NCBI GenBank assembly: GCA_008632985.1 | Contig: QPGO01000022.1 | Coordinates: 620,001 to 684,000, forward strand | Direction of reading: 5' to 3' | Source: Psammoneis japonica | Taxonomy: Eukaryota | DNA length: 64,000 bases | Part shown: positions 287 to 52,579 of the stretch, piece after piece | How the letters are laid out: each line of letters starts with the position of its first letter | Numbering within the stretch: the stretch's first letter is position 1 | Translations under genes and position numbers: made by a program | The notes under the pieces: generated by a model | Databases searched by the model: none | What the model was told of the DNA's origin: nothing | The model's input: only the letters and a program-made list of their open reading frames with translations

Positions 287-316
287 TCCATCCACAGGAT
301 CTGTCTCGCTTCTGCC

Positions 317-787: not shown

Positions 788-929
788 CACATGAAGTGTG
801 TGAGAGACTCTGACTCGGGACCCGTGCCATGCACACACACTGGGAGGAGTTGGCCTGGTGGGTGAGGGTGCAACTGGAGAAGGATGTGGCATCATGGCCC
901 GCCAGCAGGCATGGGGACATTGGCATTGG

Positions 930-5862: not shown

Positions 5863-5990
5863 CAGTGCCGACATCACGACACCAGTTTTTTGGCTCCTGT
5901 GATGGTCTCTGCATGGAGACTCATCTGCTGTTTAGACAGCAGTGAGGAGTTGTTGTTTTCTTCCACCCCAGTCATCTTCATTTTCTGTCA

Positions 5991-8900
5991 GAACACCTTG
6001 CCCCAGCCCACCAAGGCCATCATTCTTGGCTTGCGCAATGCCCACACCGGCAACTGCCATGACTTGACGGCGGCCAACCTGCACAACCTCCATCTTGGCA
6101 GTGACGGCAATGTCAACTTGTCCGCCAACACCCATGATCTTGCATCGGAACTTGCACCATCCGACGCTGCCGCCGACACGGCCGATGCCAACCCCATCCC
6201 CCAGCCCATCTCACATGGCGCAAGCCTTTACCACCCGGCAATTTGCAACGCCTCCTGGCACCTGAACGGCCCCCCTCTGCCCACTCTGGTGAGAACCCCC
6301 CTGGATCTACACCTTCTGTCTGCTCCGATGAGAAATCCAATGGATCTGTGTCCCTCCGCACTGCCGACACTGACACTGAGCTTAACGGTCAAAAACACCG
6401 TCGCGTCAACAACCACAATGTCGTCTGCTCTGCCTTGACCCACAAGTCAACTCACAAAGGTGCTCTTGTGGATCGTGGTGCAAACAGTGGCATCGCAGGT
6501 GATGATGTTCGTGTCATTGCCCGCAATGGTCACCAGGTTGATGTCCAAGGTGTCAATGATCATCAACCAGTCAACACCCCCATTGTCACTGCTGGTGGTG
6601 TCATCCACATGCAACGCGGCCCTGCCATTGCCATCCTTCACCAGCGCGCCTGCACTGGAAAGGGGAAGACAATGCACTCTTGCAGCCAGCTTGAGTGGTG
6701 CAAACATGATGTCAACGATCGGTCCATCAAGGTCCCCAACGGTCTGCAGCACATCACCACCATTGATGGACACATCATTCCCATCGACATTAAAGCCGGC
6801 CTTCCGTACATTGCCATGCGCCCGTGCACCGACGCCGAATGGGACACTCTGCCACATGTCATTCTCACTGGTGATGACACATGGGATCCATCTGTCCTTG
6901 ACCACCAGTTCACCAATGATGAGACATGGTGTGATGCCATGTCTGACCTCCAAGACGACCCGACTGCCAACCTCTTTGATGAGTTTGGCAACTGTCATCA
7001 CCGCCATGTTGTCAACAACGCCATGCTTGCAGACTCCGTCCTTGATGATCACCTGCTCCTGACATCTGATTTCTTCTGTGAATGCCATGAGCGTGAACTC
7101 CATCCAAAGGATCCCGACTTTGAGTCTCTCCGCCCTTGTTTTGGCTTTCTCCCAGAGGACACTGTTCACCGCACTTTTGATTGCATGAAGCAGTGTGCCC
7201 GCATGCCAGCCAGCACACACCTGAAAAAGGCATGCAAGTTGCCCAACCCGGCTCTCAATGTCCACCAACGCAATGAACCCATTGTTGCTGACACGGTGCA
7301 CTCCAACACCCCTGCTGTTGACTCTGGTTGCACCAGCGCCCAGCTCTTTGTCGGCACAGAATCTCTCGTCACTGACGTGTGTGGCACCAAAACTGACAAA
7401 GAATTTGTCAACACCCTCGAAGACAACATTTGCAATCATGGTGCCCCGTCCAAGCTCATCAGCGACCGCGCACAAGTTGAGATCAGCAACAAGGTTCTTG
7501 GCATCATTTGTGCCCTCTTCATCCCCAGTTGGCAAAGCGAGCCTCACCAACAGCATCAGAATTTTGCTGAATGCCGCCACCAAACTGTGAAGACCATGGC
7601 CAACACTGTCATGGATTGCTTCAGGTCCCTGGCTTGCACCTTGCTGCTCGCCCTGATGAGCGTGTGCTTTGTCCCCAACCACACGGCGTCCACCAAGCTC
7701 CACTGGCACACCCCCACCGAGGTGCCATCCGGCTCTACTCCCGACATCAGCCCGCTCCTCTGCTTTCAATGGTGGGAACCCGTGTGCTGCCACCTGGATG
7801 ATTCCGACTGGCCGTCCGAATCCCGTGAATTACGTGGTCACTTCATTGGCATCGCCGAACACGTTGGTCACCAAATGACATTCAAGATTCTTTCCAACGA
7901 CACTCAGAAGATTCTCTGCCGTTCCAACATGCGTTCTGCCCATGATCCATCTGCTCCAAACCTGCGTCTTGATCCTCCTGAGAAGAAATCTGCTGAACCT
8001 GTCATCAAACCCCACCACGACTCCGAGGATTTGCCAGATTCACCAGATGGGGAGGCGATCAGGATGCCCAAAATGCCGGTCTTTGACCCCGAGGACATCA
8101 TCGGATGCACCTTCCTCATGAAGCCACAAGAGGATGGACAACGCCACAGAGCCCACATCGTCAAAGCCGTTGAGGACCATGACTGGAAAATCAGAGTCAA
8201 TCCTGAACTGGTCAAGTTCATTTGCTCCACCAACAATGACGAGTGTGAGGAAATCCCAGCCTGCAACAACATCATGCACCACACTGAGCAAGAAGATGAG
8301 GACACCACCCTCTGGAAGTTCCAATGCATCGCAACAAAATGCATCGCATTGCACGAAGGACCATTGCAACCCCATGATCCCTCTTGGAAAGACTCAAGCT
8401 ACAACATCATGCTTGAATGGGAGAATGGGGAGATCACGTCCGAACCCCTTGCCACCATTGCCAAAGATGATCCTGTCACCTGTGCCATCTGCACACGTGA
8501 GCATGGCCTTCTTGAAACCAAAGGATGGGGGTGCTTTTGCAAGATGGCCTTGCATCAGAAGAAGCCATTCCGCATGGCCAACCAGGCCAAGTTGCACTCC
8601 TTTTGCACTGCGCCATGACACAAGTGCGGGTGTGAAGTGCCGCGCGACTGCAAGCATGCCCTGGCCCTTGATGAGCGCAATGGCAACTGCAAGTGGGGAG
8701 ACGCAACGGACCTTGAGATGACTCAGCTTGATGAGCATGAGGTCTTCCGTGACTGCGGACACTGCAAGGATTCCAGTGCTCCATCAGGACACAAGAAGAT
8801 CCGGGTGCATCTCGTCTGCAACGTCAAACATGATGGACGGCACAAAGCAAGGCTTGTTGCCGATGGACACCTCACAGACGCGCCCGTCAACAGTGTCTGT

Positions 8901-10376
8901 TCTGGAGCAGTGTCTCTCCGTGGCCTGCGAATGATGATCTTCCTGGCCGAATTCAATGAACTAGAGACTTGGGCCACTGACATTGGGAATGCCCATCTCA
9001 AAGCTGTGACCAAGGAGAAACTGCACATCGCAGCAGGCCCCAAGTTCGGTGAGCTGGAAGGACACATCCTTGTCATCCACAAGGCCTTGCACGGACTCCG
9101 CAGCTCCGGCCTCAGATGGCATGAACACTTTGCTGATTGCTTGCATGCCAAAGGCTTCTTCCCATGCAAAGCCAAACCCAACATCTGGCTGCACAGGAAT
9201 GGTGACCACTGTGAACATGTGGCAGTGCATGTGGATGACCCAGCCTTTGCCATGAAGGACCCCCAGGCTTTTGCAAACACCCTCATGGAGAAATGCAAGT
9301 TCAAGCTCAAGGGCACTGGACCATTGGAGTTCCATCTTGGCTGCGACTTCACCCGTGACCCAGACGGCACCCTGTGCCTTGCTCCCTGCAAGCACATTGA
9401 GCACATGGTTGGCAACTGCGCGCGCCTCTTTGGGGAGAAGCCCTGCACTGATGTGCTTTCACCCCTTGACAAGGGAGACCACCCTGAGCTCGACACCTCT
9501 GAACAGCTCGAACTGGAGGGCATCCACCAATTTCAATCCTTGGTTGGATCCCTGCAATGGGCCGCATCTCTTGGTCGCATTGACATCACTGCGGCTGTCA
9601 TGTCCCTGTCCAGCTTCCGTGCAGTGCCCTGCCAAGGCCACCTGGACTGCGCCAAACGCATCTGTGGATTCCTTTCCAAGATGCATCATGGTGCCCTCCG
9701 AGTGCGCGCTGAGGAGCCCGACTGTTCGGACCTCCCCAAGCCCGTGCATGACTGGGCTCAATCTGTGTGTGGGGAGGTAGAAGAGCTGCTCCCACAAGAT
9801 GCGCCCGAGCCACTTGGCAAGTTCATCACCACCACACACCACGTTGATGCGAACTTGTTCCATTGCATGCTCACTGGGTGCTCTGTCACTGGCATCCTCC
9901 ATTTCCTCAACAAGTTTCCGGCTGATTGGTTCTCTGAGAAACAAGCAACAGTCGAGACTGCCACGCATGGATCAGAGTTTGTTGCCGCAAGGACATGCGT
10001 TGAGCAGATCATTGATCTGTGCATCACTTTGCTTCACCTTGGCGTCCCCATTCGTGAAACATGTCACATGTTCGGGGACAACAAGTCAGTTGTGGACAGC
10101 GCCACCATCCCGCACTCCAAGTTGCACAAGCAACACACCGCCCTCTTGTTCCATCGGGTGCGCAAGGTGATTGCCTCCGGTTTCCTTGAGCTTCATTTCA
10201 TCGAAGGCTCCCGCAACCCAGCTGACATCCTCAGCAAGCATTGGGGTCACTCCCAAGTCTGGAGCCTCCTTTGTCCTCTGATGTTTTGGAACTTTGATCC
10301 CAAGGCTTTCAACCAATCTGACCTCAAATCTGTTGCTGTTGACCCCTCAAGCAAACTGGGGAGTGACAGGATTTGA
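5991..10376 (+). pseudogene. copia 1 gag(C-term)-pol pseudogene (protease, integrase, RT, RNase H)
   Basis: ALVDRGANSG (protease), LISDRAQVE..QSEPHQQHQNFAE (integrase), HDGRHKARLVADGH, DIGNAHL, HVDD (RT) and NPADILSK (RNase H); TGA stop at 8616-8618. Confidence 0.92.
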
Positions 10377-10609
10377 ACAAGATTTTGGTTTGTCACACAC
10401 AATTGTGTGTGCTCTCAGCTCCGTGCATGTCGCGCAATGCAGTTTGCTTTCAAGCCACGTGGCTCACAAGAACAACAACAGCAGTGCCAACATCGCAACA
10501 CCAGTCTTTTGGCTCCTGCAATGGTCTCTGCACGGAGACTCATCTGCTGTTAAGACAGCAGCAAGGAGTTGTTGTTTTCTTCCACCCCAGTCATCTTCAT
10601 TTTCTGTCA
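10364..10609 (+). repeat. 3' LTR of copia 1
   Basis: Follows the PPT; ends tttctgtca before TSD ACTCT. Confidence 0.92.
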
Positions 10610-11622
10610 ACTCTCCTTGACACCCGCTGTTGCTTGCAGGGGTGCTGTGTCAGTGTGGGCCACAGACTGTTGTGAGTGACACTGTGCATTTTTAGAAGCA
10701 AGAGTGGACAGCATGCTCGGCATCAAAGCAAGTCACGACCTGGTCTTTTGGTCACAGCATTTGGAGCCACACATTGCAGTTTTGGCTTCATTGCCATGAC
10801 GCTGTCCACACTCCTCCAGCACCAGCAAAAGGTAGCATGCGCTGACGACACTTCCATGAGAGCATGGTGTTTGCTTCTCGGTGGCAACATCAACCTCAGC
10901 TTTGTCAAAAAATGTCCAGAAGCTCTTGCGTTGGTTTCAGCTTCAACCGGTTGTCCGCACAGATCCAATGTGAGTGATTTCTTCTCATCCGCAACTTGCG
11001 ACATCACTTTCATGCCCATTGCGTGAACAGCTGATTGCCGGCAGATGATGGCGGATGTGACAATTCAAAGGGGCTGTCTGAAACAGTGATTCTGAAGGCA
11101 CCAAAGCGATTTGGTGAGAAACGGTGGGCTGGTTTGGTTGTCGCGCTTGGCAAAGGCTGTGGCGGGAGATGAAAGCTCGGACTTGCGTCTTGTGACTGCA
11201 CGTTGAGTCTTGTGAATCGTGATGTGTGGTGACACTTTTCTTTTTGTCACGACGTCGACGACCGCCATGGTCCATTTGGGCAAAAAGTTTGATTTTTCTA
11301 AAAAAATAGCACCTGCGTGATTTTTACGGCGTCCCCACCCATGGCAGCACGAAAGTCAGGGTCATACAAACAGCAATGTAGATAATGACGTGTCATTTCT
11401 TAGGGAATTGACATAAAGCAGTTGGCTGCATCAGCTTCATTCACAAAAAGTATACAGGAATAAATACATATACATAAACATTTCAATGTTCTTTGAGGCG
11501 AAAGTTGAAGTGTGCTACGTACGGAATCGTATGTTTTCACGTGGCAGATGGCGACTCTGAAGTTTTCGATTTTGTGTTTTTCGTGAAAGAGATAGTTTCG
11601 AGTTGTATTTGAGGGCATCACG

Positions 11623-12750: not shown

Positions 12751-15700
12751 GCATCAACTGGCTTTTCGTATGCGAGAAGGCTGAACCTTTTATCTTACAT
12801 GACTACTGTATGTCTCCTTATTGCTGTATCAGAAACAAGCAGTCCTTCCTTGTCGTTAGTTCATAGTTTTATAATTACAAGTAACAATTGAATTACTCTT
12901 TACCAGGTGCGATCTTTTCGCATTTCAATCATTACAAGTACTATATAACGTGCCTCGTGAGCACCGCATACGCTATAGCAGAGGGTTGGTCCGTCTTGAT
13001 CGAAAGAGAGTGGGACACGGAACTTTGCACATTTCTCGTACTTAGCCAGCCTTTGGAAAAGATGTCAGTTGACGTGATAACCCAGACGTCAAAAAATAGG
13101 CTAATAGCTAGACACGTTTTGCTTTTTTGTTGAATGTCGTGGATGCGGTAATTTGGTATCGAAAACGAAGCCGAATCCAACGTGTCTCGAAGCTCTAGCA
13201 ACAATTGCTGAAATGCGACGATAAAAAATGAAATGCCTCGGATAGAAGATTGAAACATTTATGGATGCAAAAGCTTGGACATGCGCACAACGGCGACCTC
13301 CATGGGACAAGAGATGTATGCCGCTATTACACCCGTGACAGCTCCTACTCCGACACAACGAGTAACCATACAAAAACATGCATGTGAGTAAGAAACAAGA
13401 GAGACGAAGAGGCACCGTTGCGACAAAACTCCCGCGGACATCGTGCAGCTTGTCACGAAGTGTCTCAAAAGACCGAAACGAATGGAAGCATGAGAGACCT
13501 GTCTCCACACTCCGGCAGCCAACCAAGCATGTTGGCCGGGCGCACAATCATCCAGCCTGAGCATCCCCACAAACCCGACGCCGCGAACACGACCGCACGA
13601 GAAACGGGCGGTGGGCTGGGGAGGAGGGCTGCACTGCTCCTGAGGACATCGCCAGCTGGAGAGCAGAGAGCGCCAAAGATGTGCACAATGCTGCCAGAGC
13701 TGGAGGTTGCAAACTCTTGAGACTGCAGTGTGTGTGTCTCATGCATCAAAGGTCACACACACATCAAAGTTTGCAACCTCCCCAACACATTTTTGAGAAA
13801 TGTCAAGAATGCCATCATCTTCGTGCTTCAATCACGGTGTCAGAATGTTCTCATTTTTGTGCGCGATTGGGGTGTGAGGGCCCCCAATTTTTGCGCGCAA
13901 CTGTGCATCTCCACCACACGCACTCCACACAGTGGGACAAACTGTGGGGTGACCCCAGTTGGTTGATGGCCCCCCCTGCAAGTCTGTGCATTCATCCAAT
14001 TGAGCCACTTTTCTGAGTGGAACGCAACCCTTCTTGTGTTGATCAATGCAGTGACTTCCCTTTGAGTCTGTTGCACATGCCAACACATTGTTGCAGCTGT
14101 CCTGCTGGCAATCATTGTCAACAAATCATTTGCTCCACTCCTGTTGGGGACATTTGGTGAAAAGGATCACCAGCAGAAAGTGTTTTGTGACAGCAACAAT
14201 TGCAAATCAATGTCGCCATTGCCAGTCAGCAGCAACACCCAAACTCCTCAAAGCCCACCCAAGTGCAAGAAAACTCAGACAAAAAGAAGTGTGCAATCCC
14301 GGCACATGATGTGTGGTTCCAGTGTGGAAAAAAACCAGGATTTCAGTGCAAGGAGCAAGTCACAAAATGTTGATGTTCTTTCTCATGTTGCGCCAATGTC
14401 TGGCATCTCACAAACGTTTGTTTGGTCATTGTGGCTGTCCGGCTGTCAACACTTTCCCACAAATCATTTGTTCTGCTCCCATTGGTGAGGTTTGATCAAC
14501 AGGATTGACAGCAGAAGGTCACAAACATGGACAGAAATGAGGCAACTGCAACTGGATGTGCTGCCATTCATGCCAGCATTTGCAGCATTCGTCATCACTC
14601 TAAATTCTGGGTTTTAATTCCACAACTCTCAATTCTGCAGCAGCAAGTTGTGCCCAACAGAAGTGCTGCACAAAGCATCACATTTGGTGTTTTGTGTCAT
14701 GACAGCAACTGCTGCAGTGCTCAAGCAACTCCTGCACAGAGAAAAACACCCAACATGCCACTCTTGTTGCGTTTTTGCAGATGCCTTGATTCTGATCATT
14801 GACAAATGGCAATGCTCTGCAAAGCATTGCATTGGTGCCTTGGAATCATGTGTTGACAGTTGTTGCCATGCTCAAGCAGCTCTCCACAAAGAAACTGCTC
14901 TCAGCCATCATGCAAGGGCATGCTGCTGCAGCTTGTTTGCAAAATCAATGGACCAATTGATGTTGACCAATTTCTCACCCCATTCTTTGCATCCACCATC
15001 ATCAACAGTCTTGGATTCTGAATCACTTTGCTGCATTTCCGAACAACCAGAAGTTTGGGGAGCAGCATCACCGTTGTTCTCCTTGTGTGAGTGGCCTGCT
15101 TCTTACACTGTTTGAGTGGCCTCCACTGGTGCCGTGCTGTCCTTTTTCCTCGTGTTGTTCAGGAAATGTTTGCTCCCAATTCTTTGACAAAGTCACAACC
15201 CTTCAAACTCCTGTGCTTCACAGCCATTGCACTGGAGTTCTTCACCTGCCAGAGCAACAGCATGGCAGCGCTTGCCTCGGCAGTTGTTCACTTGGAGGGC
15301 AAGCGAATGTGAGGCACCACCTTGGAGAGCAGATGAGACACCATCCTTGTGGAGTTGTGGAAAGCCACCACATTGCAGTGCCTTCAGCACACAGGTCACT
15401 GTCCATCCACATGCATTGCAACCTGGCTGGAAAAGCAATCACAAGAAGCCTTGCGGCTTCGGTGGAAAAAATTTTCACAGAGCTGTCTTGAAGCTGAAGC
15501 AGCAATGGGCAATGTGCAGACTTGTGGGGGGGGGGGGGGGGGGGTTGTTAATTGCATCAACTTTCATGAAGACAACAAGACACAGCCATTCAGCGAAGCG
15601 TCCAATCTGCACAATGTGTTGCACACTGGCATTGCTGTGCACAATCCACGCATGCGATTTCTACATGTTCTAAAGTGCTGAGGTTTTGGAGCATGCAAAT

Positions 15701-17767: not shown

Positions 17768-18308
17768 CCAGTCAATTTCCATGGCATCCTCATGGTCAAC
17801 CTCCTCCTTGGGGAATGCCTTTTGGAACTTCGCCTTGCAGTTTGCAAGGATCTCCTTGTCGATGGTGCACTCTGCATTTAGAAGATCAGGAAGTTCAGTG
17901 ATTTCCAGGTTGCAGTGACCTGTGATCATCACAAGAAGCATTTGGAGTGGTGCTTTGCATTTGCAGTTGCAATTGGCAGAGATGTCAAAGTGGGGGATGT
18001 TCTTCTTCTTTGGGGGACGTCTTCGGAAGCGAGACTGTTGAAGAAAGTTACGTAGAATTTGCACTGAAACAGTCTGTCAATCAGTGTGATTGGGTGTTTG
18101 GGACCTCTGGACAGATCCCACGTGTTTTCTTGTGTGCACAAATTGCGCTGGGAAAACCCCCAAATGTGCTGGCGATCAGACCGCCTTCGACGATCTCACT
18201 TCCAAAGATGCCCCCCATCTTGGGGTGCTTGATTTGGTTGGCCTTGACCTTGCAATGAATTTCTTTGATGTTGACCTTGTTTCCAACAATGATGACAGGC
18301 AGATCTGG
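17768..18308 (-). pseudogene. Ran GTPase-like pseudogene, 3' part (interrupted by a MITE)
   Basis: PDLPVIIVGNKVNIKE..KVKANQIKHPK | KKKNIPHFDISANCN...GHCNLE, comparable to Ran IPIVLCGNKVD..KKNLQYYDISAKSNYN. Confidence 0.8.
18013..18215. mobile_element. ~200-bp MITE with ~31-bp imperfect TIRs, probable TA target (Tc1/mariner-type)
   Basis: ggggacgtcttcggaagcgagactgttgaag / cttcgacgatctcacttccaaagatgccccc, flanked by TG and CA; excision leaving one TA restores the Ran frame (HPKIKKKNIP). Confidence 0.75.
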
Positions 18309-18571
18309 TGACAGGATTTGAACAGGATTCAGGTGCGCGCGAAATGTTGCGTGCTGTTTAGTTTGCCACGCACAGTTTTGTGTGCTCTTCAGTTCCGCGC
18401 GTGCGCGCGCGATGTAGTTTGCTTTCAAGCCACACGGCTCACAACAATGATGCCAGTAGCCCGGTTGCACCGACTTACACGTCTTTCGGATTGGCGGAGA
18501 CTCATCTGCCATTTAGACAGCAGTGAGGAGTTGTTGTTTGAGTTCTTGCCATTTGCCTTCAATTTCTGTCA
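18309..18571 (+). repeat. 5' LTR of copia 2 (263 bp; ~15 bp shorter than the 3' LTR)
   Basis: TGACAGG...TTTCTGTCA; aligns to 25161-25438. Confidence 0.93.
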
Positions 18572-19525
18572 GATTGACAGTCTTGCTCATTGTCAACCCA
18601 TTGAGCAACCACCATCATCGTCGTTGATTTACTGACAATGCCACTTCAATTCTGCGTGGACCTCCGCACATGTTCTGCGTGCACATCGGCAAGTCTGCGC
18701 ACATTCAACACCAGGCACCGGCAGGAATTTAACGTCACCGTCAAGTCTCCTTGCCGCTGGACATCTGGATTGATTGCACTGCCTTTTGTCGCTGAAGACG
18801 TGCATTCAACGGTCACATCCAAGTCTGTCCTTGATCCTCATCCCTTGACACACCCATTCAACGGTTAACGGTCAAGAACCCTGCACATTCAAAGATCTTC
18901 GTCGCTCAAGACATGTGCACACATGCATCTTCACGGCCAAGAACTTGAACCCACTCTTTGGACTGTGGCTTTGCTGCCACTCTACAAGCACACCGAGTCT
19001 GTTGCACCTGATCTGCCCCGGACCACTGGTGCTCTGCAGTTCTGCTGGGTCCACGAGGATGACTGTGAGAGCAAGCAGCCGTGATTGCAGCCTGCGTTGG
19101 GGCGAGGGTGTTTTCCCGCATTTGTTTGTTCGTCCACAGTGCCCAACGCCCACGTCAACTGGCCAGCCTGATCGGGAAATCCAACCGACATAAAACAAGA
19201 ACAGTTTGGGGGTCTTGTCCGCCTCCAGTCAGCTCACCTGCAGGGGTTCACAACCCGCTGCTCCGCTTGCAAGCAACCCAAAGTGCCGCCAGCTGCGGGT
19301 TCGGAAGTGCCAGCACAACTCTGCAGACCGGACAGGAAGTTTGGCACTTAACAACAAATGGGACAGCACAGCCCGGCGACTTCTGATTTTAAGACAGTTC
19401 AAGATTTCAAGTCAAGTCTGTTTCAAGTCAAGTCTGTTTCAAGTCAAGTCCATTCCCACTCAAGTTTCAAGTCTGCCTCTGCGTCCCAACAAGAATCGCT
19501 TGCCCTGGCACCGCTTTTGTCTGCC

Positions 19526-22500
19526 ATGGTTCTCACTCGTCAGCAACAAACCGATGGTTTCGAGCACGTTGTTGGAACCGTGCTTGCCCAAGGTGCTGGA
19601 AGCCCTCTTTGTTTGGCCTTGACCCATGACGGCACGGACTCGTGCCAAGAACTGTTCACGTTCATGCCTTCCCAAATCGACTCGCTTGAGTGCGACAATG
19701 GCACTAATGTGGTCCCATTGCCCCGAGGTTGTAAGAACATGTTAGCAGCTCTGGTCAGTCTGTGCATTGTCAAAGCACACAAGGGCCTTGATGTTGCCAA
19801 TGACTCTTCATTGTTCATGCATGATGAGTTCCTTGCCTGCTGCCTCAGTCCCAACTGCATGGCTTCTGTGTCCGTCGGTGGCTCACCTCTTGCACCTCCG
19901 CACGTCACCAACCTGACCAAGGCACGCGACCCAGTGCGAGACTTCAAGCGAGGCATCAAGCGTGACCCCACTGCTTTCACGGCTCTCAAATCCGACAAAC
20001 AGTGGCACACTTGGCACACCTCACTTGTGGCACAAGCCTGTGCCCAAGACATCAAGTGCACTCTAGACTCATCGTACAAACCAACCAGCCCCAAAGACAA
20101 ACTGCTCTTTGCTGAACAGCAAAAGCACATGTTCGCTGTCTTCGAACGCATCCTTCTCACCGACAAGGGCAAAGCTCTCATTTGCGAAAATGTGGGGTCT
20201 TCTGACGCCCAGACCATCTGCCGTGCCTTGTCCGAGCATGCGCTCACCTCCACCCATGCATCTGTTGAGTCCTCCACCTTGCTCACGCACCTCACCACCG
20301 CACGCCTTGGTGATGGCACTTGGAAAGGTCCAACCCATGGGTTCATCCTTCATTGGCAGGATCAGTCACGCAAGCACAAGGCACTCATCCCGGCCAGTGA
20401 CCACTTCTCTGAAGGACAGAAGCGCGTCATGCTCGAGAATGCCGCACATCCTGTTGAGGAACTCCGCGCCGTCAAGAACCAAGCTGATCAAGATCGCACG
20501 CAGAGTGGCAAGAGCCTCGTGTGCGATCAACATTGTGGCTTGCTCCTCTCCGCGGCAGCTCAGTGTGACAGCACGTTTCAACCCAAGACGACACCTCGAG
20601 CTCCCCGCCGTGCCACACACGCACATGACGTCCACTCCGAGGAACCATCCGATGATGTGTTCCATGACATCGACAGCGACATTGACGTCCTTCAGGCCAA
20701 TGCTGCCCACACCTGCGGTCCCAGCCTCACCGGCGACCAATGGAAACGTCTCCCTCCTGACCACCAACAGATTTGGGATTCGTTGCCCAATTCCTCCAAG
20801 GCAATCATCCTTGAGCATTCTCGTCCGCCTCCTTGCAACCCACGAGCCGGCAACTGGCATGAGTCCGTTGCGGTCAACCTTCACGACCAACGACTTGGGA
20901 GTGACGGTGATGTCAACTTGTCCGCCACGACTCTTGCTGACTCTGGTGATCCTGCTCCGAATGTGGGTGCCACTTCAGACAATCCCATTCTGGCGCATCT
21001 CACCAAGTGCAAGCCACTGCCACCCGGTGATCTGCAACGCCTGTTGTCTCCTGACCAAACCCCCACAGCCAGTCGACCGGGCCCATCCACCGCTCCCTCT
21101 ACCTCGCCTGCTCCTCCAGATGACATGGAACTCAACGGCCGCACTTGCTGCTGCGTCAATGACCACAATGTCATTCACTCTGCCTCCGCTCATCGCTCCA
21201 CACGCACTGGTGCTCTGGTCAATTGTGGAGCCAATGGCGGCATTGCTGGCGACGACGCTCACGTCATTGCACGCACCTCTCGCCAAGTCGACGTTCAGGG
21301 CATTGACGACCATCAATTGGTGGACATCCCCATTGTCGCCACTGGTGCCGTCATTGAGACACAGCATGGTCCCGTCATTGCCATCCTCCATCAGTGCGCG
21401 CACACGGGAAATGGCAAGACCATTCATTCCTGTGGCCAGCTCGAATGGCACAAACACGATGTCAACGATCGCTCTGTCAAGGTGCCCAACGGCTTGCAGC
21501 GCATCGCCACCCCTGATGGCTGTGTCATCACAATTGACATCAAGGGTGGCCTGCCTTACATTGCCATGTGGCCCTGCACTGACGACGAATGGGACACCCT
21601 GCCACATGTCATCCTTGCCAGTGATGACACATGGGACCCTTCCATCCTTGATCACTCTGTCACTGACGACGACCAGTGGTGCGATGCGATCTCTGACCTG
21701 CAGGACGATCCCACTGCCAACCCATTTGACGAGTGCGGCAACTGCCGTCACCGTGTCATTGTCAACAAGGCCGTCATGTCCGCCTCCTTGCCTGCCGATC
21801 ACGCGTCCGCCCTCGATGACCACCTCATTCCGAATGAAGACGTGTTCTGCGAGTGTCATCTGCACGCGATTGACCCCAAGGACGACGATGTTTTGCCTCT
21901 GGAGCGCAATGTGCAGCCCAAGGACCCCCCCCCACGAGTCTCTTCGGCCCTGCTTTGGTTTCCAACCCACCGTTTCCAACCCACCGACACGGTTCGTCGC
22001 ACTTTCGACTGCACCACGCAATGTGCCTGCATGCCCGCCGGTGCGCACCTCAAGAAGGCCCACAAATCGCCCAACCCCGCCCTCAATGTGCACCGCCGCA
22101 ACAAGCCTGTCGCCACTGACACCATTCATGCCAACACCCCGGCCATCGACTCTGGCTGCACCAGCGCCCAACTGTTTGTTGGTGCTGAGTCTGCCGTCAC
22201 TGACATCTGCGGCACCAAATCCGACAAAGAGTTTGTCAACACACTTGAGGATCAGATCCGTGAGCGTGGTGCTCCATCCAAACTCATCAGTGACCGTGCT
22301 CAAGTTGAGATCAGCAACAAGGTGCTCGGGATTCTACGAGCCCTGTTCATCTCCAGCTGGCAAAGCGAGCCTCACCAGCAACACCAAAACTTTGCCGAAC
22401 GCTGATGCCAGACCATGAAGCGCATGGCAAACACCATCATGGACCGTTTCGGTTCGCCTGCCCACACATGGCTGCTGGCACTCATGTGTGTTTGCTTCAC

Positions 22501-25160
22501 ACTCAACCACACAGCGTCCCCATGTCTCCACTGGTGCATGCCCCTCGAGACTCTTGCTGGCTCCACCCTGGACATCAGCCCATTGCTCCGCTTTCACTGG
22601 TGGGAACCCGTGCACTTCCACCTCGATGACTCCAATTGGCTGTCCAAATCCCGTGAGTTGCGTGGATGCTTTGTTGGCATTGCTGAACACGTCGGCCACC
22701 AGATGACCTTTAAGATTCTTTCTGATGACACTCAGAAGATCCTCTGCCGATCCAATGTACGATCCGCTGCCACCGATCCTTCCATTCGAAACCTGCATCG
22801 TCTTGATCCTCCTGATGGGGAGCCACCTGAACCCATCATCAAATCTCGCCATGACGACAACCCCGTCGATTCACCTGATGGGGAGATCAGGACACCCAAG
22901 ATGCCAGTTTTCGATCCGCAAGACATCATCGGACGCACCTTCCTCATGCAGCCACAAGAGGACGGACAATGCCACAGAGCTCGCATCGTCAAGGCCGTCA
23001 AAGATCATGACTGGAAAGTGAACGGCAACCCCGAGCTCACTAAGTTCATCTGCTCTGTCAACAATGACGAATGCGAGGAAGTCCTGGCCTGCAACGACAT
23101 CATGAATCACATTGAGCAAGAAGACGAAGACACTGCTGTTTGGAAATTTCGACGCATTGTGTCACACAAAGGACCTCTGAAGCCTCATGACCCAACCTGG
23201 AAAGGCTCAAGCTGCAACATCATGCTTGAATGGGAAAGTGGGGAGATCACGTCTGAGCCTCTTGCCATCATCGCCAAGGACGACCCTGTCACCTGCGCCA
23301 TCTATGCACGAGAGAACGGACTTCTCGACACTGATGGCTGGAAGCGGTTCCGCACCATCGCGAGGCACCAGAAGAAGCCACTCCGCATGGCCAACCAAGC
23401 CAAGCTTCGCTCCTTCCGCACTGCACCTCGCTGCAAGTGCGGATGCGAAGTTCCCCGGAACTGCAAACATGCCATGTCCCTAGACGAACGCAACGGCAAC
23501 CGCAAATGGGGAGACGCAACCAATCTCGAGATGGACCAACTCGATGAATACGAAGTCTTTCATGACTGCGGACCCTCCGAGTCTTCCACTCCCCCTGCGG
23601 GACACAAGAAGATCCGAGTGCACCTGGTGCACGACGTGAAACATGACGGCCGCCACAAGGCATGACTCGTAGCCGATGGACACCTCACAGACGCACCCAT
23701 CGACAGTGTCTGCTCTGGAGCAGTCTCCCTTTGTGGCCTTTGGCTGATGATTTTCCTGGCCGAACTCAATGAGTTAGAGACATGGGCCGCTGACATTGGC
23801 AATGCCTGCCTTGAAGCCACCACCAAGGAGAAGCTGTGCATTGTGGCTGGACCCAAATTTGGCAAACTCAAAGGCCACATTCTTGTCATCTACAAGGCCC
23901 TGTATGGACTGCGCAGCTCTGGCCTTCGCTGGCACGAGCGCTTCACCGACTGCCTGCGAGCTGAAGGTTTCTTCCCCTGCCGCGCCGAACCCGACATTTG
24001 GATGCGCACGAACGGCGACCACTGCGAACATGTTGCCGTTTGTGTGGATGACCTCGCCATTGCCATGAAGGATCCTCAATCTTTCGTCGACACTCTCACG
24101 GAAAAGTGCAAGTTCAAGCTCAAGGGTGCGGGACCGATTGAGTTCCACCCAGGCTGCGACTTCTCCCGGGATCTGGATGGCACCTTGTGTCTGTCTCCGC
24201 GCAAGCACATCGAACGCATGGTCGACAGCTGCACATGACTGTTTGGGGAGAAACCCACCACCAACGTCCTGTCCCCTCTGGAAAAGGGTGACCACCCCGA
24301 ACTGGACACTTCCGAACTGCTGGAGCCCGATGGCATTCAACAGTTCCAGTCTCTTGTCGGTTCCCTCCAATGGGCAGTGTCTCTAGGTCGGATTGACATC
24401 ACCATGGCTGTCATGTCACTCTCTGGCTTTCAAGCTGCGCCCCGTCAAGGCCACTTGGATTGTGCCAAACGCGTCTGTGGGTGCCTCTCCAAGATGCGAC
24501 ACGGTGCTCTCCACGTTCGCACGGAAGAGCCCGACCATTTGGATCTCCCTGCACCGGCCTGTGAATGGATGCATTCCGTGCACGGCGAAGCAGAGGAGAT
24601 GATCCCGAAGGACACTCCACCGCCCCTTGGCAAGTTTGTCACCACCACCCACTGCGTCGATGCAAACTTGCATCATTGCATGCTCACCGGATGCTCTGTC
24701 ATGGGAATGCTCCACTTCCTCAACAAATTCCGGGCTGATTGGTTCTCTAAGAAGCAAGCCACCGTGGAGACTGCGACCTGCGGGTCTGAATTTGTTGCCG
24801 CAAGGACTTGTGTCGAGCAGATCATCAACCTGCGCATTGCCCTGCATCACCTCGGTGTCCCGATCCGTGACATTGGTTGCATGTTCGGCGACAACAAGTC
24901 CATTGTGGACAGTGCCACCATCCCGCACTCCAAGTTACACAAGCGACACACCGCACTGTCGTTCCATCGTGTGCGTGAGGCGATTGCCTCTGGTTGCCTT
25001 GAGCTCCACTTCATCGAAGGCTCCCGCAACCCTGCTGACATTCTTGGCAAGCATTGGGGTTGCTCCCAAATCTGGGACCTTCTCCGTCCCCTCATGTTTT
25101 GGAACTTCATTCCATCCAAAGTCGAATCTGTTTCTGTGACTCCTCAAGCAAACTGGGGAG
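19526..25160 (+). pseudogene. copia 2 gag-pol pseudogene
   Basis: MVLTR...FKRGIKRDPTAF (gag), ALVNCGANGG, LISDRAQVE, KALYGLRSSG, CVDD, NPADILGK; in-frame TGA stops at 22403, 23663 and 24236 where Arg (CGA) is expected. Confidence 0.93.
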
Positions 25161-25438
25161 TGACAGGATTTGAACAGGATTCAGGTGCGCGCGAAATGTC
25201 GCGCGCTGTTTAGTTTGCCGTGCACAGTTTTGTGTGCTCTTTGGTTCCGCGCGCACGCATGCGATGCAGTTTGCTTTCGAGCCACACGGCTCACAAGAAT
25301 GACAACAGCAGCCCGATTGCACCAACTTGCACGTCTTTCGGCTCCTGTGCGGGTCTCTGAGTGGAGACTCATCTGCTGTTTAGACAGCAGCAAGGAGTCA
25401 TTGTTTGAATTCTTGCCACTTGCCTTCAATTTCTGTCA
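25161..25438 (+). repeat. 3' LTR of copia 2 (278 bp)
   Basis: Follows the PPT; ends before TSD TCTGG. Confidence 0.93.
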
Positions 25439-25739
25439 TCTGGGTTCAAGTGGATCACATCCTTGCACCAGGCAGGGATGGCTTTGCAGGACAAGCATGC
25501 CATGATGTCAAACATGATCAGCACACCATCCAATTTCTTCTGTCCACTTGCATCACAAAGAATGATCTTCATCCATCCGTCATTTGTCTGGAGCAGCAAC
25601 GGCGGCATCTCAACATGCACTCTGTGCTGCACTTGCACTTCTGTTGAAACTCAGCAATGACATGACACAACATGCATGAGGTCTTGCCAATGCCTCCATT
25701 GCCAACAAGGATGACAGTGAACGTGGGGATGTCAGCTTG
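25439..25739 (-). pseudogene. Ran GTPase-like pseudogene, 5' part
   Basis: PTFTVILVGNGGIGKTS (P-loop) ... VEMPPLLLQTNDG..ILCDASGQKK..LIMFDI..KAIPAWCKD..LNPD; joins the 3' part across the copia 2 TSD; pyrimidine tract plus CAG acceptor at 25740. Confidence 0.82.
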
Positions 25740-27389
25740 CTGAGGAAGAGATTAAAAAAAAGAAGAGAGAGAAAAAAGTCACAGAGCAACAGAAATGAGA
25801 GCAAGCCAGTTGAGCAGGAGTGGTTCCCAAAGGCGCTTGAACTGTTGCCGGTTCACACTTTCCCACACAGAAAACAGGATGCCAACGGGACCCTTTCAAG
25901 CACACATGAGCAAGACACAAGTCCAAAACTTTCCATGTTGTTCAAGCACAAACCACCGGTCAATGCAGCAAATGACAACACACTGTGCATCTTGGGCCAT
26001 GGGACTGTCTGGGATGCACTGGAGGTGAAAAACCGTTGATGACTGCACACCACTTGGAGTTGCACAAATTCTCATGGTGTCACATGCAGCAGAATTTATG
26101 CAAACATCTTTGAACAGTCAGTCCTGGTGATTTTGAATTTTGATTGTGTTTTGACAGTTTTTGACAATCCTGATGCATTCATGATGGTGGTCTTGTTGAT
26201 GTTGAATGCCAGACAAGGCTCGGCATTGCCCATGTTGGTGGTGATGTGAGGGCAGACACTCATGATGATGCAATTGTGCACGCAGGTGACATGCTTCTTT
26301 GGAGTGAAGGTCTTGGATGATGGGTTGGCCAAGTGCTTGTCAGTGGATGTCAATTTGGCATGCTTGGCAGAAGGACCACCCACCATGGTGATGGTTCTTG
26401 AAGGTCTTGATGTGTGCTGACATGTTTGTTGAATGGTCAAAGCACCACTTAAAAGTGGAGTGGTGTGAAAAGTGAGTGATTCTCAAAATTGTGAGCTGCT
26501 TCTCCTGTGGTGAGCTGAAAAGTGGTGAGTGAAGAGGGGCCATTGGTGATCAATAGTTTCTCAATGGACAAAGGGTCAAAAGATGCTGGCTTGCATCACT
26601 TTAAGAGTTTGATGTGATTGTGGCACACAGTTGTGTTTGCATTTTCAAATGCAGAACCATTTCATGTGTCACACAACATGTGCACAAATCTGCACCACCT
26701 CAGATTCAGTGTTTCAGGTGGTTAAATTTGTGAGAATGTCAAAATGTGACAACACACTGACAACTGAGTGGAGACCTGGAAATTTAAAAAACGGGGGAAC
26801 AAGAATTGAAAAAAGATGCCAAAACATCAAAAGATCAGCAACATCAAGCAGTTGTGAGAAAGCCAGTTAACAAGGTTGTCAGAGACAATGAGATCAAAAC
26901 AACTCCTTCATTGTCAGCACAAAGAAGCAGTCATTGACATTGCACATTTACATTGAAGGATTGTGCACAAAATTGGCCTGGAACCTCATGCAAGCCATGT
27001 GTCACACACGGTCATTCCACGTTGGCATTCAAGTTCTTGACCTTGATGCCATGCTTGCGCTTGCTCAATGGTGCAGATGACAAGAACTCAGGTGGATCTG
27101 GCATGGATGATTCTTTTCAGATGGAAGCAGTTGGCACCAGAGTGCAAATGAAGCACACTGGACTTTTTAAGTTGATGATGCAGTGTGCTGCACATTCAAC
27201 AACAACACGTGGTTTTGACTCAATCATCTGTCAAGCAATCACATTCAATGATGACATGCAATTCCGTCCACTGCCACTCTACACAGTCTTTGGAAATTCT
27301 TTTGCTGGTTTGAAGTTGACAGCTTCCAAGTGTCTGATGTGCTCCAGCACAACCAGCAGTGTGCCTCTGCCACACCAGGATGAAAAGGA

Positions 27390-27970
27390 CTCAACCACCT
27401 TGAGAGCTGGCAGCACACAGGCTCCATCCACCACCAGCACCAGCAGCATGCAGGCTCCCACCACCACCAGGGCCACAGCAGCAGTGCACAGATGCCTGCT
27501 GCCACCAGTGCCAGCAGCAAAGAATGGCTCCAACCGCCTCCAGTGCCAGTGGTGTGCCAGTGCAGGCTCTGCTGCCACCAGTGTTGGCAGCACACACACT
27601 CCAACCACCTCAACTGGTGACAGTGGCTGTGAATGTTCCCACCACCACTGCCACCAGCAGCAGCCAGGCTCCCACTGTTGCCAGCACCAGCAGCAGAAAT
27701 GCAGCAGTGCACATGCTCCAACCACCTTTTGACCAGGGCCAGCAGCTGCGCAGGTTCCCACCACTGCCAATGCCAGCAGTGGCAACCAGGCTCCCACTGT
27801 CAGCAGCACAGGCAGCAGAAATGCTCCAACCACCACAAGTGCCAATGTCATGCAGAGGTGCCCACTGCCACCAGACAAAAGGCTCCAACCACCTTGATTG
27901 CTGGTGGCAGGCCTCAGCCTGCACACACTCCAACCACCTTGACCAGTGCCAACAGCTGTGCAGGTTTCCA
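27390..27970 (+). repeat. degenerate low-complexity repeats encoding Thr/Ser/Ala/Pro-rich units (QAPTTTS-like)
   Basis: Recurring caggctcc(c/a)accacc..ccag(c/t)gc/agcagc units. Confidence 0.65.
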
Positions 27971-32283: not shown

Positions 32284-33366
32284 TCAACTCAAGTTGCTGT
32301 CGGTGCTCCTGAAATTGTTTTGAGAAACAGTCAACGCAACCATTGACTCAATCTGCGCAAGTGCAGGAAGCTGGGCACTCGGTTCAGTGCAGGCCGCACT
32401 GCTTGGAGAACTCGCATTGGTGGCATTGGTGCTGCGGCTGCAAGAATTGTCAGCACCGCAGTCATCGGCACTGCTGCCATCAGCTCTGGCATTGCTGTTG
32501 CTGCAAGAGTTGTCGTGGCCACTGTGCGAGTTGGCAGCAGTGGCACTTTGGCTGCGAGAGTTGTCGATGGGTTCATCATTGTGATTGGCACTGCCATTGT
32601 TGTGATTGGCAGTGTCACCTCTGGGGTGGGTGTTGGCATTGTCATCGCGGGAGCTGGTGCCAAACAAGCACCCGCTAAAGTTGGCATTTCCCTGAAGCTC
32701 CTGGATGCAGTTCAAGCTGCCACCAGCATTCACCACTGTGCTTGGAGGTGCTGGTGCCAGTGCCGGCTGCTGATGCATCCCAGCATCTGCCGCTCCCAAT
32801 CGGCACGTGTGGCAGCACACAGCTGCAGATTGGATCTGTGTGCAGGGCAACGATGGATTGCAAATTGAATCGCTCCACAGCCTTTTCCACAAATCACTGT
32901 TAAAGCAGAACTCTTGCTTCATGTGTTTTTCCAGCTCTTCCACCGATGATGGCCTCTCCCACTCAGAAAATGTGTCCAGTTTCTTGATCGTCTCTTGGCG
33001 GCACCGATCAGTCGCAAGGCACTTGCACCAAGATCCACTGCAGCATTTTTTGAGCTGCAATTCACATGTGCTGCTGACTCGCATTGTCTCAGATGTTGTT
33101 GTTCTCCAGTCCGGAAGGCATGGTGAGTCTCTGCAAGCTTGCTTCCACTGTGACTTCACGTCAATGTCTTGTTGGTCTTGAAGGCTCCACAGTTCAGCCA
33201 TCTTCAGCAAAACGCAGAGGCTGAATGCTCTTCCCTTTGGGGGGAGCTCTTTGCAAATTCTTGCAAACGCAACTCCAGACACTGCAGTGCTGTGTCCAAC
33301 ACGAATGTCACAATGAATTGAAGCGCCGTCTGCCGGTGCTGTGCCGTTGTTGTTGTCATTCGACAT
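32284..33366 (-). pseudogene. TpA-mutated former coding sequence of unknown function
   Basis: ATG-initiated 360-aa ORF with no Tyr and excess Cys/His, divergent from the 33987+ ORF; no recognisable family. Confidence 0.35.
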
Positions 33367-33986
33367 TTTCCCAATGCAGCGATGTTGTGGTCACGACAAA
33401 GTGAACAACGCAGAATTTGGAGGGATGAGCGGGTGAGCAGGATGCAGCAACTGTGGGAACTCTTGCAATGAAGGCTGCAATGAGAGAGCATTTGCTGCAA
33501 CTGTTTTTCTTGTCATTGTGTTGATGGTGGGGTTGTGATGCGATGCTGCCCAGTGCATGTTGGATTTTGCTTGTCCTTCCTTGCCGTCCCGGCCCAGCAA
33601 ACCGTCGAACTCATAAATCATGTTCGTGCAGTGGGACTTGCATTGATTTGTTTGTTGAAAGGAATGAATTCTTTCACGTGTTAATTTTAAAAAGACAGGG
33701 CTCTGGCACAATGCCATTGAGTGCATGTGAAGACATGAGACAATCATTGGAGGATTTCCCGAGCTGTCTTGAGTGCCGGTACGACATGAAACAACGCGCC
33801 GCAACTTCGACACGACAACGCTGCACAACAAGCTCTTGCTTTTCCACCGCCAAGTTGCAACCATGCGCAATGCCAACAACCGCATCCACTGACGTGTTCA
33901 TGTGCCGGGCCTGACGATCCGCATCGGCGTGCAACTTCCAACGCTGCTCGCCCAGGTCGAGCACCTCCACCGCCACCATGCCACCA

Positions 33987-35422
33987 TGCGCAACTCCAAC
34001 AGTCACATGTCTCTGCCCCCCAACCCCCAAAGATCTGTCCGTTTCTCCATGCTCCGCTGCTGTGGTGACCAGGGAGAAATCACTGCCCAAAAGACGAGGT
34101 CGTCTATCAAAGCAAAAAATTCCGCCGGCATCTCTTCAACCTCCACAGAAGGAGAACATCCCAATGGCATGGACTCCATCCCCTGGCACTGTGATGCACG
34201 AAGAAGCCGCGGCAACAGTCACAGCTGCGAAAGACCAATCACCATGCCACTCCGCTGCTGCGTCAACACTCGTCAAGGCAAAGCCAAAAAGCAAGCTCGT
34301 CGAACAAAATTCAAAAAGTCAAATGCTCGGGCTTCTCACAGCAATGGACTGCACGAAACGAGGGAATCGAAACGGATTGGAACTTCACCACCCCACGAGA
34401 CTGCTCAAGAAGAAGCAACGGCAGCAACAGAAACACAGAACCGACCACTCGATCATGCCACTGCTGCATCAACAAGCGCTGAAATCGCACGTCAGAATCC
34501 GAATGCTGCGCCCCCCAAGATTCTAACGCCCCCAGCGTCAACTGCCATTGATCTTAACGGTAGAAGGCATTGCTTCCAAGACGACTCCGCCACAAGAAGA
34601 AGCTCCCAAGCCAGAAAATAGAACGGAAGAGCAAGGAAACGCATGCACTCCCATTGGTGCTACTGAGGAGGCGAGTGCTCAAGAACCAATTCCATCAAAG
34701 GCGAAGAGCAAGCGTGGGTTATACGTCATGAAACTCACTCCTCAAGACAAACGGAATCATCTCTATTGCTTGTGTGCCAGCGATGAAAGCACCACATTTC
34801 GTGCCTACTGCGCTCAGAATGGAATCGAGAGCCAACGCGGTACCCTCCTGAGTCTGTCCAAGAAAATCAACCTGGACGAGTTGAGAGAAAGAGGTGCTCC
34901 CAAAGAAGCAGTGGCCGATCGAATCAACGCCGCCGTTCCTCTCTGGACGGAACCGCAAACGGAAAGGATGGACGTGGGAAAGGGAACTCCTATCTGACCA
35001 ATATGGAGCAACACTACATCTCATACCTTGTGTCTATTCTCGGAATCACTGGCAATGGAATCGACAAGCCCTACATTGAAATGCTCGTTAATTCTATTCT
35101 TTCGATGAGGATGGATATCGAAGATATTTGGGCCGTTGACGACCGAGTTGTCGATAAACTGTTGGAGAAGAATAAACTCCGTCTGGCGAAAGCAAACTCA
35201 CTGGATCCAAGGAGGGCTGAAGCTGCAAGGCTTGAAATCCAGGAATGTTTCTTCAATGATCTTGACAAGTTCTGCTTCATGCTGCATGAAGTGTTCGGCG
35301 AGGAGGTCTGGCCCTGGAAATATTTCAAGGATGTACCAGCGGCCAACATGTCTAACTCAGACGAGATGGCAACGAATACCTTGGGACACAGAAATGGAAT
35401 AGCGCTTCCAGAGAGTTCTTAG
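33987..35422 (+). pseudogene. frameshifted, truncated pogo/DDE_1-like transposase N-terminal region
   Basis: Helical region, then KANSLDPRRA...WPWKYFKDVPAANMSNSDE resembling the pogo-type first catalytic D (NxDE); several frame breaks. Confidence 0.5.
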
Positions 35423-52560: not shown

Positions 52561-52579
52561 TGCAAACAGGGAGACCACT

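Follow-up and report, generated by a model that had tools for sequence, protein, structure and literature searches.

LTR pairs of two Copia retrotransposons in Psammoneis japonica indicate mutation of TpA in chromosomal DNA after insertion, on both strands

Introduction

Deamination of RNA by ADAR and ADAT enzymes, like the action of the base editors derived from TadA, changes A to G with a strong preference for a 5′ U or T, and it reaches DNA only when engineered. The closest described system is that of Bigelowiella natans, in which 231 of 302 de novo mutations fell into two integrated viral regions (Mettrop et al., bioRxiv 10.64898/2026.01.13.699255). According to the main text of this preprint, 230 of the 231 were A-to-G or T-to-C changes, all at TpA and at about 1000 times the baseline; TpA-depleted coding sequences were enriched for reverse transcriptase (RT) and transposase domains, and ADAT2 was named as a candidate. 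The preprint counts 124 depleted clusters in a callable genome of 85 Mb (90%), with the 5% tail taken from a Rho(TpA) of 0.43. A term search of it, its supplements possibly holding flanking data, returned no CpG, LTR (long terminal repeat), flanking or TTAA. Here we analyze 64,000 nucleotides of Psammoneis japonica DNA (GCA_008632985.1, contig QPGO01000022.1, positions 620,001 to 684,000, forward strand), called the window below, which supplies all coordinates. It carries two related Ty1/Copia-type LTR retrotransposons, Copia 1 and Copia 2, whose LTR pairs and codons record a loss of TpA to CpA and TpG.

Results

Two Copia elements and their LTR pairs

Both elements are bordered by perfect 5-bp target-site duplications (TSDs) and consist of the following parts.

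18309–25438: Copia 2, complete Ty1/Copia-type LTR retrotransposon, TSD TCTGG on both sides
18309–18571, + strand: Copia 2 5′ LTR, 263 bp, TG...CA ends, TSD TCTGG at 18304–18308
19352–25210, + strand: Copia 2 polyprotein frame, 1953 codons, three in-frame stops, all TGA
25161–25438, + strand: Copia 2 3′ LTR, 278 bp, TG...CA ends, TSD TCTGG at 25439–25443
5617–10609: Copia 1, element related to Copia 2, TSD ACTCT on both sides
5617–5862, + strand: Copia 1 5′ LTR, TSD ACTCT at 5612–5616
5863–5990, + strand: tandem duplicate of the 3′ part of the Copia 1 5′ LTR, 128 bp
6138–10373, + strand: Copia 1 polyprotein frame, 1412 codons, one in-frame stop (TGA)
10364–10609, + strand: Copia 1 3′ LTR, TSD ACTCT at 10610–10614

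Comparison of the LTRs within each element gave a clear dinucleotide pattern. The Copia 2 pair has 263 aligned columns with 32 mismatches (12.2%), 24 of which lie inside sites where both copies carry a pyrimidine–purine dinucleotide (YR/YR sites); the Copia 1 pair has 246 columns with 27 mismatches (11.0%), 22 of them inside such sites. The swaps found are TA/CA, TA/TG, CG/TG, CG/CA and the double swap CA/TG. The site classes of Copia 2 are CG/CG 13, CG/TG 5, CA/CG 4, CA/TG 6, TA/TA 2, CA/TA 2 and TA/TG 1, and those of Copia 1 are CG/CG 1, CG/TG 3, CA/CG 4, CA/TG 7 and TA/TG 1. Outside the YR/YR sites there remain 5 transitions and 3 transversions in Copia 2, and 2 transitions and 3 transversions in Copia 1. 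When equal numbers of transitions and transversions were placed randomly on the 5′ LTR 20,000 times, the observed 6 (Copia 2) and 7 (Copia 1) double CA/TG swaps were reached in 0 of 20,000 placements. The YR-site mismatch load had P = 7e-4 (Copia 2) and 5e-5 (Copia 1) by the same procedure, and 0.0097 and 0.00087, respectively, by a simple binomial test. Chance does not account for the pattern in the LTR pairs, which is real.

The six sequence examples given in the original prediction can all be found in these alignments. One of them, gcgTGcg/gcgCAcg, lies inside a (CG)n run and is more likely derived from CpG than from TpA. The description of the LTR differences as largely swaps among TA, CA and TG stands as far as their position in YR sites is concerned (24/32 and 22/27), while CpG decay has to be added as a sizeable co-contributor. 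At non-YR columns the divergence is 6.5% (Copia 2) and 4.1% (Copia 1) compared to 12.2% and 11.0% at all sites, so the predicted overestimate of element ages by LTR dating is borne out and amounts to about 2–3-fold.

One more CA/TA difference lies within the Copia 1 5′ LTR, between the copies of its 128-bp tandem duplication (5735–5990). These copies have diverged at 11 of their 128 positions, of which 8 belong to YR sites. In Copia 2, 15 bp of the 3′ LTR are without counterpart in the 5′ LTR.

Features typical of the Ty1/Copia type are present, namely TG...CA LTR ends, the 5-bp TSD, RVT_2 and, in Copia 2, a polypurine tract (GGGGAG) directly 5′ of the 3′ LTR. Pfam places RVT_2 at 23666–24238 in Copia 2 and within 8619–10376 in Copia 1; the matches in the two elements have E = 3.7e-18 and 4.7e-15. 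Integrase (rve) and gag gave no Pfam match in either Copia, which is plausible for so degraded a sequence, and an Rfam scan of the window gave 0 matches. The two elements are about 74% identical across the shared 4.3 kb. Approximately 2.2 kb of 5′ internal, gag-side sequence of Copia 2 (18572–20790) is missing in Copia 1 (compared: 5991–6170), which may be a non-autonomous deletion derivative. The in-frame stops of the two frames (8616, 22403, 23663 and 24236) are TGA in 4/4 cases.

Direction of change

The direction could be read from conserved tyrosines. A homologue search with the RT/RNase H frame of Copia 1 returned 2209 proteins at E ≤ 1e-10, of which the best 120 were used; these are 52–65% identical, all contain PF07727 and come mostly from environmental contigs. 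On average they hold 4.6% Tyr, 3.9% His and 1.2% Cys. The frame of Copia 1 holds 0.1% Tyr, 6.8% His and 4.9% Cys, that of Copia 2 0.3% Tyr, 5.3% His and 4.0% Cys, and the host open reading frames (ORFs) in the window contain 1.5–3.6% Tyr. At the 19 columns where at least 80% of the best 120 homologues have Tyr, Copia 1 shows 0 Tyr, 10 His (all CAY), 7 Cys (all TGY) and 2 Phe, while Copia 2 shows 3 Tyr, 4 His, 11 Cys and 1 Phe. Both elements together have thus turned 32 of 38 conserved TAY codons into CAY or TGY. The Tyr of the LYGL motif is H in Copia 1 but is still Y in Copia 2. Of the other conserved residues, Arg excluded, 579 of 640 have been retained (W 12/12, H 17/17, P 22–23/23). Arg is kept at 17 of 26 conserved columns in each element, and the lost columns show Cys, His, Gln, Trp or a stop, plus one Leu; the former match the prediction for CpG decay. 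The polarity is from TA to CA or TG, and this excludes a process like the repeat-induced point mutation (RIP) of fungi, which would run from CA to TA. The RIP signature of TpA excess and AT enrichment is likewise absent: TpA is down 10-fold, CpA and TpG are up, and G+C is slightly higher.

With the LTRs of the other element as outgroup, two changes in Copia 1 can be polarized in the same way. In the 3′ LTR, TTTAG (present in three copies) has changed to TTTGG, and one of the tandem copies in the 5′ LTR now reads TTCAG in place of TTTAG. There is one such change per strand.

The same signature is found at an intermediate stage on other contigs. Among the best 120 homologues, protein P0098 has His or Cys at 10 of 16 conserved Tyr columns, and P0095 at 8 of 19.

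Timing and strands

LTRs are identical at integration. Those of both elements now differ despite perfect TSDs, at TA/CA (2, Copia 2), TA/TG (1 each) and CA/TG (6 and 7) sites, and the mutation therefore took place after insertion. Where a conserved Tyr column is mutated in both elements, the outcome is the same at 8 and different at 6, as expected from independent hits. In the RT motif, YVDD has given way to HVDD (Copia 1) and CVDD (Copia 2). Because an element lacking the catalytic Tyr could not supply its own RT, these changes are placed after integration as well. Together with the depletion of 617 and 691 bp of target DNA beside Copia 1 (see below), the differing LTR pairs and HVDD versus CVDD uphold the claim of mutation in chromosomal DNA after insertion.

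Both strands are hit. Polarized outcomes amount in total to 29 CA versus 34 TG, His and Cys outcomes are interspersed within each element, and A-to-G changes are not confined to the sense strand, all as originally predicted. Depleted DNA as a whole contains 4436 CA and 4177 TG. Per 500 bp, the CA versus TG counts are overdispersed (chi-square 159, 79 degrees of freedom), without large-scale strand bias.

These data bear on A-to-I editing of the retrotransposon RNA by an ADAR/ADAT-type enzyme before reverse transcription, according to which the elements arrived already mutated. Some CA/TG states are indeed common to both LTRs and unlike most copies of the family, such as place 25320 with 66% TA, and could predate insertion. 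The 5′ U/T preference also resembles that of RNA adenosine deaminases, as is argued in the Discussion of the Bigelowiella preprint too. Edits of this kind should appear in both LTRs of an element, but the two are not the same at such sites. Sense editing would give only TG, yet CA accounts for 14 of 32 Tyr-codon outcomes (10/17 in Copia 1, 4/15 in Copia 2). Moreover, elements would have been unable to produce RT of their own without the catalytic Tyr, and target DNA that belongs to no element is equally depleted beside Copia 1. We consider RNA editing highly improbable, in agreement with the argument of the original prediction.

Family copies and relatives

Copies of the Copia 2 family were followed in a public run, coded X1, in which 11,952 contig pieces fall on 17800–25900 with an identity of at least 80%, and 1,845 pieces reach 99% or more. 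Variant places on this interval comprise 596 transitions and 96 transversions. For the spectrum, 40 of 726 variant places were chosen by support. At these, Copia 2 shows CA (8) or TG (8) against TA in other copies, and CA or TG (7 + 6) against CG; of the remaining places, one is CG>CA and ten are changes of other kinds. Place 25320 has CA in both Copia 2 LTRs, compared to TA in 66% of the family depth. The summed depth of the family reaches tens of thousands versus about 65–75 for flanking single-copy contigs, a figure that is not a copy number.

Such abundance invites the explanation that gene conversion or recombination with diverged copies brought the LTR differences in. The family is highly repeated in the run, and contigs there join LTR to LTR (18396 to 25263). 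The matching TSDs in both elements speak against an inter-element crossover, and imported variants would still need a DNA-level TpA process in the other copies. Neither the depleted target DNA nor the equal saturation everywhere would be explained. We judge such import improbable.

We also considered an artefact of sequencing or assembly, in which modified bases in repeat chromatin lead to miscalls of TA and CG. The sharp borders and the dinucleotide specificity described below do resemble a modification-dependent basecalling error. A systematic error, on the other hand, would match in both LTRs and in both elements, and the outcomes differ. Where the window is unique, k-mer contigs of the run are identical to it (two contig records of 261 and 491 bases, 0 differences), and the public protein relatives P0098 and P0095 carry the same partial Tyr-to-His/Cys pattern. 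Of all rivals this is the one to which we give the least credit.

The left flank of Copia 2 (17800–18308) is multi-copy in the run. One contig of single-copy depth (64.8), about 85% identical, connects 18306 with 25624; it seems to be a paralog of the older host repeat that lacks Copia 2. Among metagenome contigs there were 29 pattern matches, one of which was confirmed as a relative, the distant Copia element L001 (4027 bp, 50% identical). Its TA observed/expected ratio (o/e) is 0.49 and its CpG o/e 0.01; this is extreme CpG decay without the TpA process in another organism's element, and hence uninformative for TpA.

TA-depleted domains and gene islands

The whole window has an o/e of 0.26 for TpA, 0.59 for CpG, 1.49 for CpA and 1.55 for TpG. 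These averages conceal two kinds of DNA, which a 1-kb dinucleotide map separates.

About 3.1–5.0, 11.3–13.4, 34.5–44.7 and 55.1–64 kb: gene islands
300–3050: TA-depleted block at the left window end
5000–11300: TA-depleted compartment holding Copia 1
13400–34450: large TA-depleted domain with Copia 2 nested in older repeats; TA o/e 0.01–0.18, CpG 0.06–0.25 in the old parts
44700–55100: old TA- and CpG-depleted block; TA o/e 0–0.09, CG 0.04–0.26, edges at most 100 bp wide

The depleted compartments (40.5 kb, about 60% of the window) contain 138 TA, or 3.4 per kb, with an o/e of 0.06 for TA, 0.38 for CG, 1.70 for CA and 1.81 for TG. The gene islands (23 kb) contain 912 TA, or 39.6 per kb, with a TA o/e of 0.59 and a CG o/e of 0.99. 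Between the compartments the remaining twelve dinucleotides shift by about 0.1 at most (GA, TC, GC), so that the change is specific to these four, and G+C is 50.5% in the depleted domains versus 48.3% in the islands. TC and CC are barely changed (1.13 to 0.99 and 0.89 to 0.91), which does not indicate a cytosine deaminase directed by a 5′ T. APOBEC-type editing of the cDNA was rejected as well: the non-CpG transitions are A-to-G or T-to-C at TpA, and the o/e of TC and CC changes little.

Depletion is confined to the domains. The compartment borders are at most 100 bp wide, for example at 3100, 5000, 11300, 13400, 44700 and 55100. The islands hold genes for a HAD hydrolase, HSF, an OCRL-like 5-phosphatase/RhoGAP, ESCO, an aldose epimerase, a kinase, two bHLH genes and Rpb6. 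The genes of the window carry 0–1 short introns; genes of B. natans are intron-rich. For a close homologue of the Copias, the nearest cluster in the Atlas names Bacillariophyta, from a single record.

The loss of TA runs ahead of the loss of CpG. Both Copias have a TA o/e of 0.02–0.16 while their CpG o/e is still 0.44–0.83, and in the older blocks (14–18.3, 25.4–32 and 44.7–55.1 kb) TA and CpG are both lost. At the margins 200–700, 13400–13900 and 32300–34450, TA is gone and CpG moderately frequent, which fits TA loss ahead of CpG loss at the domain edges. TAA plus TAG fall from 16 per kb in the gene islands to 2.6 per kb in depleted DNA (5–9 times rarer). Because these two are scarce and only TGA stops arise, dead elements as well as random frames run without a stop over hundreds of codons.

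The depletion extends beyond Copia 1 into its target DNA on both sides.

5000–5616: target DNA left of Copia 1; 1 TA in 617 bp, CpG partly kept, compared to 3–5 TA per 100 bp at 4600–5000
10615–11300: target DNA right of Copia 1; about 3 TA in about 690 bp, compared to 5–9 TA per 100 bp from 11300 on, upstream of the HSF gene

As in the element itself, the flanks have lost only part of their CpG. The depletion stops about 300–350 bp before the divergently oriented HAD and HSF ORFs, and from the base composition it looks like a mutagenic state that has spread into promoters. The left flank also contains a direct repeat, 5063–5224 and 5261–5422, 69% identical with a 198-bp period.

Inside an old block, 27400–27900 shows a CA excess of 95 CA versus 43 TG per 500 bp. 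Pfam on 52 ORFs of the old depleted blocks gave nothing beyond one sub-threshold zf-CCHC match (45844–46302, + strand, E = 0.0011), which may be the gag remnant of another retroelement. A tblastn search with the 12 longest homologues as queries revealed no additional Copia remnants in the window.

Shares and rates of TpA and CpG decay

The original prediction was open to the objection that most LTR differences might trace to ancestral CpG. In one respect this objection holds: CpG-involved sites are the largest class that can be assigned directly (9 in Copia 2, 7 in Copia 1). The CA/TG class (6 and 7 sites, two nucleotides each) is not assignable in its origin from the LTRs alone, and its derivation from TA was obtained from the coding columns instead. 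There, CA/TG-discordant pairs between the elements occur at 6 of 19 Tyr columns (11/30 at a 50% threshold) and at 0 of 26 Arg columns (0/34 at the 50% threshold). Because the discordance arises at Tyr and never at Arg, most CA/TG swaps are TA-derived. On this calibration about 15 nucleotide differences are TA-derived versus 9 (Copia 2) or 7 (Copia 1) that are CpG-derived. Between roughly one quarter and one third of the LTR differences thus fall to CpG, a share that heterogeneous CpG decay could raise.

From these numbers we can evaluate CpG methylation decay as the only process, with CA/TG swaps arising from CpG hit on opposite strands and low TA being native. A CpG o/e of 0.38 in the depleted compartments, the large assignable class and one quoted swap in a (CG)n run are compatible with it, and in Copia 1 such a model yields about 6 discordant sites versus 7 seen. 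For Copia 2, where 13 intact and 9 single-hit sites give a loss of about 0.26 per copy, it predicts about 0.8 discordant sites versus 6 observed. Furthermore, CpG decay leaves unexplained the loss of Tyr codons (32/38 TAY now CAY or TGY, compared to 4.6% Tyr in the homologues), the discordance at 6/19 Tyr versus 0/26 Arg columns, and the 10-fold drop of TA between compartments. As a sole cause it is therefore very unlikely.

The two decays differ in speed. Leaving Phe aside, 3 of 35 Tyr codons survive, a fraction of about 0.09, compared to about 66% of CGN Arg codons. From codon survival and the LTR counts, TA decays about 6 times faster than CpG and about 50 times faster than non-YR nucleotides. 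The CpG loss in the depleted domains is presumably due to deamination of 5-methylcytosine.

Flanking bases

Surviving TA in depleted DNA, relative to the gene islands, depends on the neighboring bases as follows.

TTAA: 0.84
CTAA/TTAG: 0.27
CTAG: 0.11
GTAA/TTAC: 0.10
CTAC/GTAG: 0.06
ATAA/TTAT: 0.04
GTAC: 0.03
ATAG/CTAT: 0.03
ATAC/GTAT: 0.008
ATAT: 0 of about 107 expected

With its terms fitted on three palindromic contexts, an additive half-site model predicts the six others within about 1.5-fold. The outcome also depends on the 5′ base: purine-TA sites gave 21 CA and 9 TG, C-TA sites 4 CA and 20 TG (Fisher P = 1e-4). It appears that, on the A-bearing strand, TA followed by a pyrimidine is preferred and TAA is refractory (TAY > TAG >> TAA).

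Discussion

We put the probability at roughly 0.85 that a mutator of TpA acts at the DNA level on silenced, repeat-rich domains, in situ after integration. Several observations weigh against this. Directly assignable LTR sites are CpG-involved rather than TpA-involved at 9:3 in Copia 2 and 7:1 in Copia 1, and the near agreement of the CpG-only model with Copia 1 (1 intact, 7 single) was mentioned above. At the two TA/CA sites of Copia 2, parsimony against the Copia 1 LTRs makes CA ancestral. A model of outcome by the 3′ neighbor with fixed parameters performed worse than a coin flip (log-likelihood −46.8 versus −43.7) because of 4 CA outcomes at T-TA sites; the context rule is incomplete. We searched for strand-coordinated runs among the 86 CA/TG-discordant sites between the elements and counted 42 runs versus 42.5 expected, which gives no support for a processive single-strand deaminase. 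A deaminase gene is not present within the 64-kb window. The flanks of Copia 1 have no other match within the window except the local 198-bp repeat, a comparison that does not cover genome-wide uniqueness. Finally, run X1 is possibly the source run of the assembly itself.

According to the post-insertion TpA mutator, events would proceed as follows. The mutator would turn 5′-TA-3′ into 5′-TG-3′, or into 5′-CA-3′ when the other strand is the target. It would continue to work after the retrotransposon has integrated until TA is almost exhausted, hitting both LTRs independently, the coding region and a few hundred bp of adjoining target DNA, and it would halt sharply at gene islands. CpG would decay to TpG or CpA in the same domains, about 6 times slower. 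Because of this slower decay, young elements are TA-free but CpG-rich and old blocks are without both. We infer from the pattern that an enzyme is at work, that it is directed by the chromatin state and that it serves defence.

As to the chemistry, adenine in 5′-TA-3′ DNA might be deaminated to hypoxanthine by a TadA/ADAT-like or another deaminase that requires a 5′ T, and hypoxanthine would be read as G in replication. We name this deamination as a tentative candidate, with slightly less than even chances. The T of TpA might instead be modified or oxidized, giving a base of the 5-hydroxymethyluracil type that mispairs with G; this is conceivable but rather unlikely. The two are inseparable by sequence because TpA is its own complement. 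A more detailed proposal is a 'reverse RIP', targeted to chromatin domains, which would edit the A or the T of TA with TAY preferred and TTAA immune, run about 6-fold faster than CpG decay, spread 0.6–0.7 kb into promoters, and kill elements through Tyr-to-His/Cys changes while their frames stay open. For this proposal in its entirety we see even odds.

If the TpA mutator is real, there are practical consequences. LTR-divergence dating in such genomes would be inflated about 2–3-fold. Gene predictors will call dead elements genes since their ORFs are long, profile searches will miss element domains because Tyr and Arg are systematically replaced, and promoters beside insertions would be mutated too. 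The result would also point to a natural editor of DNA adenine (or thymine) with a defined sequence rule. LTR-pair evidence, from what is probably another lineage and on a genome-shaping scale, would make TpA editing a general defence mechanism. If the 'reverse RIP' holds in a host that is probably a stramenopile alga, TpA-directed DNA editing would be a widespread genome defence across the SAR eukaryotes (stramenopiles, alveolates and Rhizaria) and not that of one chlorarachniophyte.

Compared to known systems, the window resembles several in part. With the RIP of fungi it shares dinucleotide-specific transitions that occur in situ at the DNA level and on both strands, kill transposons and can leak into neighboring DNA. 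RIP, however, converts C to T mostly at CpA and leaves TpA and AT-rich DNA, whereas here TpA is destroyed and GC gained. The decay of methylated CpG gives TG and CA in the same domains, and with them the Arg changes and the 9 + 7 LTR sites, but it cannot touch TpA. ADAR/ADAT enzymes and TadA editors are alike in the A-to-G change and the 5′ T, while the product in the window is heritable and lies in genomic DNA on both strands. In the full-text literature we found TpA-to-CpA/TpG hypermutation of DNA only in the Bigelowiella preprint. The phenomenon is therefore not unprecedented; it is known from this single 2026 preprint and is now seen on LTR retrotransposons.

As far as the main text of the preprint describes it, B. 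natans and the window have in common that TpA is changed to TpG or CpA on both strands of chromosomal DNA, that foreign or mobile sequence is hit and genes are spared, and that long-term TpA depletion comes with an excess of CpA and TpG, with RT coding sequence among the depleted. In B. natans the process was measured in mutation-accumulation lines, among which it was episodic, on single-copy inserts of giant viruses and virophages that are still rich in TpA (Rho of 0.45); here it is deduced from LTR pairs and codons. Unlike that case, the window is near saturation (o/e 0.06) over about 60% of its 64 kb, a level far under the Rho(TpA) of 0.43 at which the preprint's 5% tail begins, and involves a very abundant Copia family. 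The CpG decay, the sharp borders, the spread into flanks and the sparing of TTAA belong to the description of the window and not to that in the preprint's main text.

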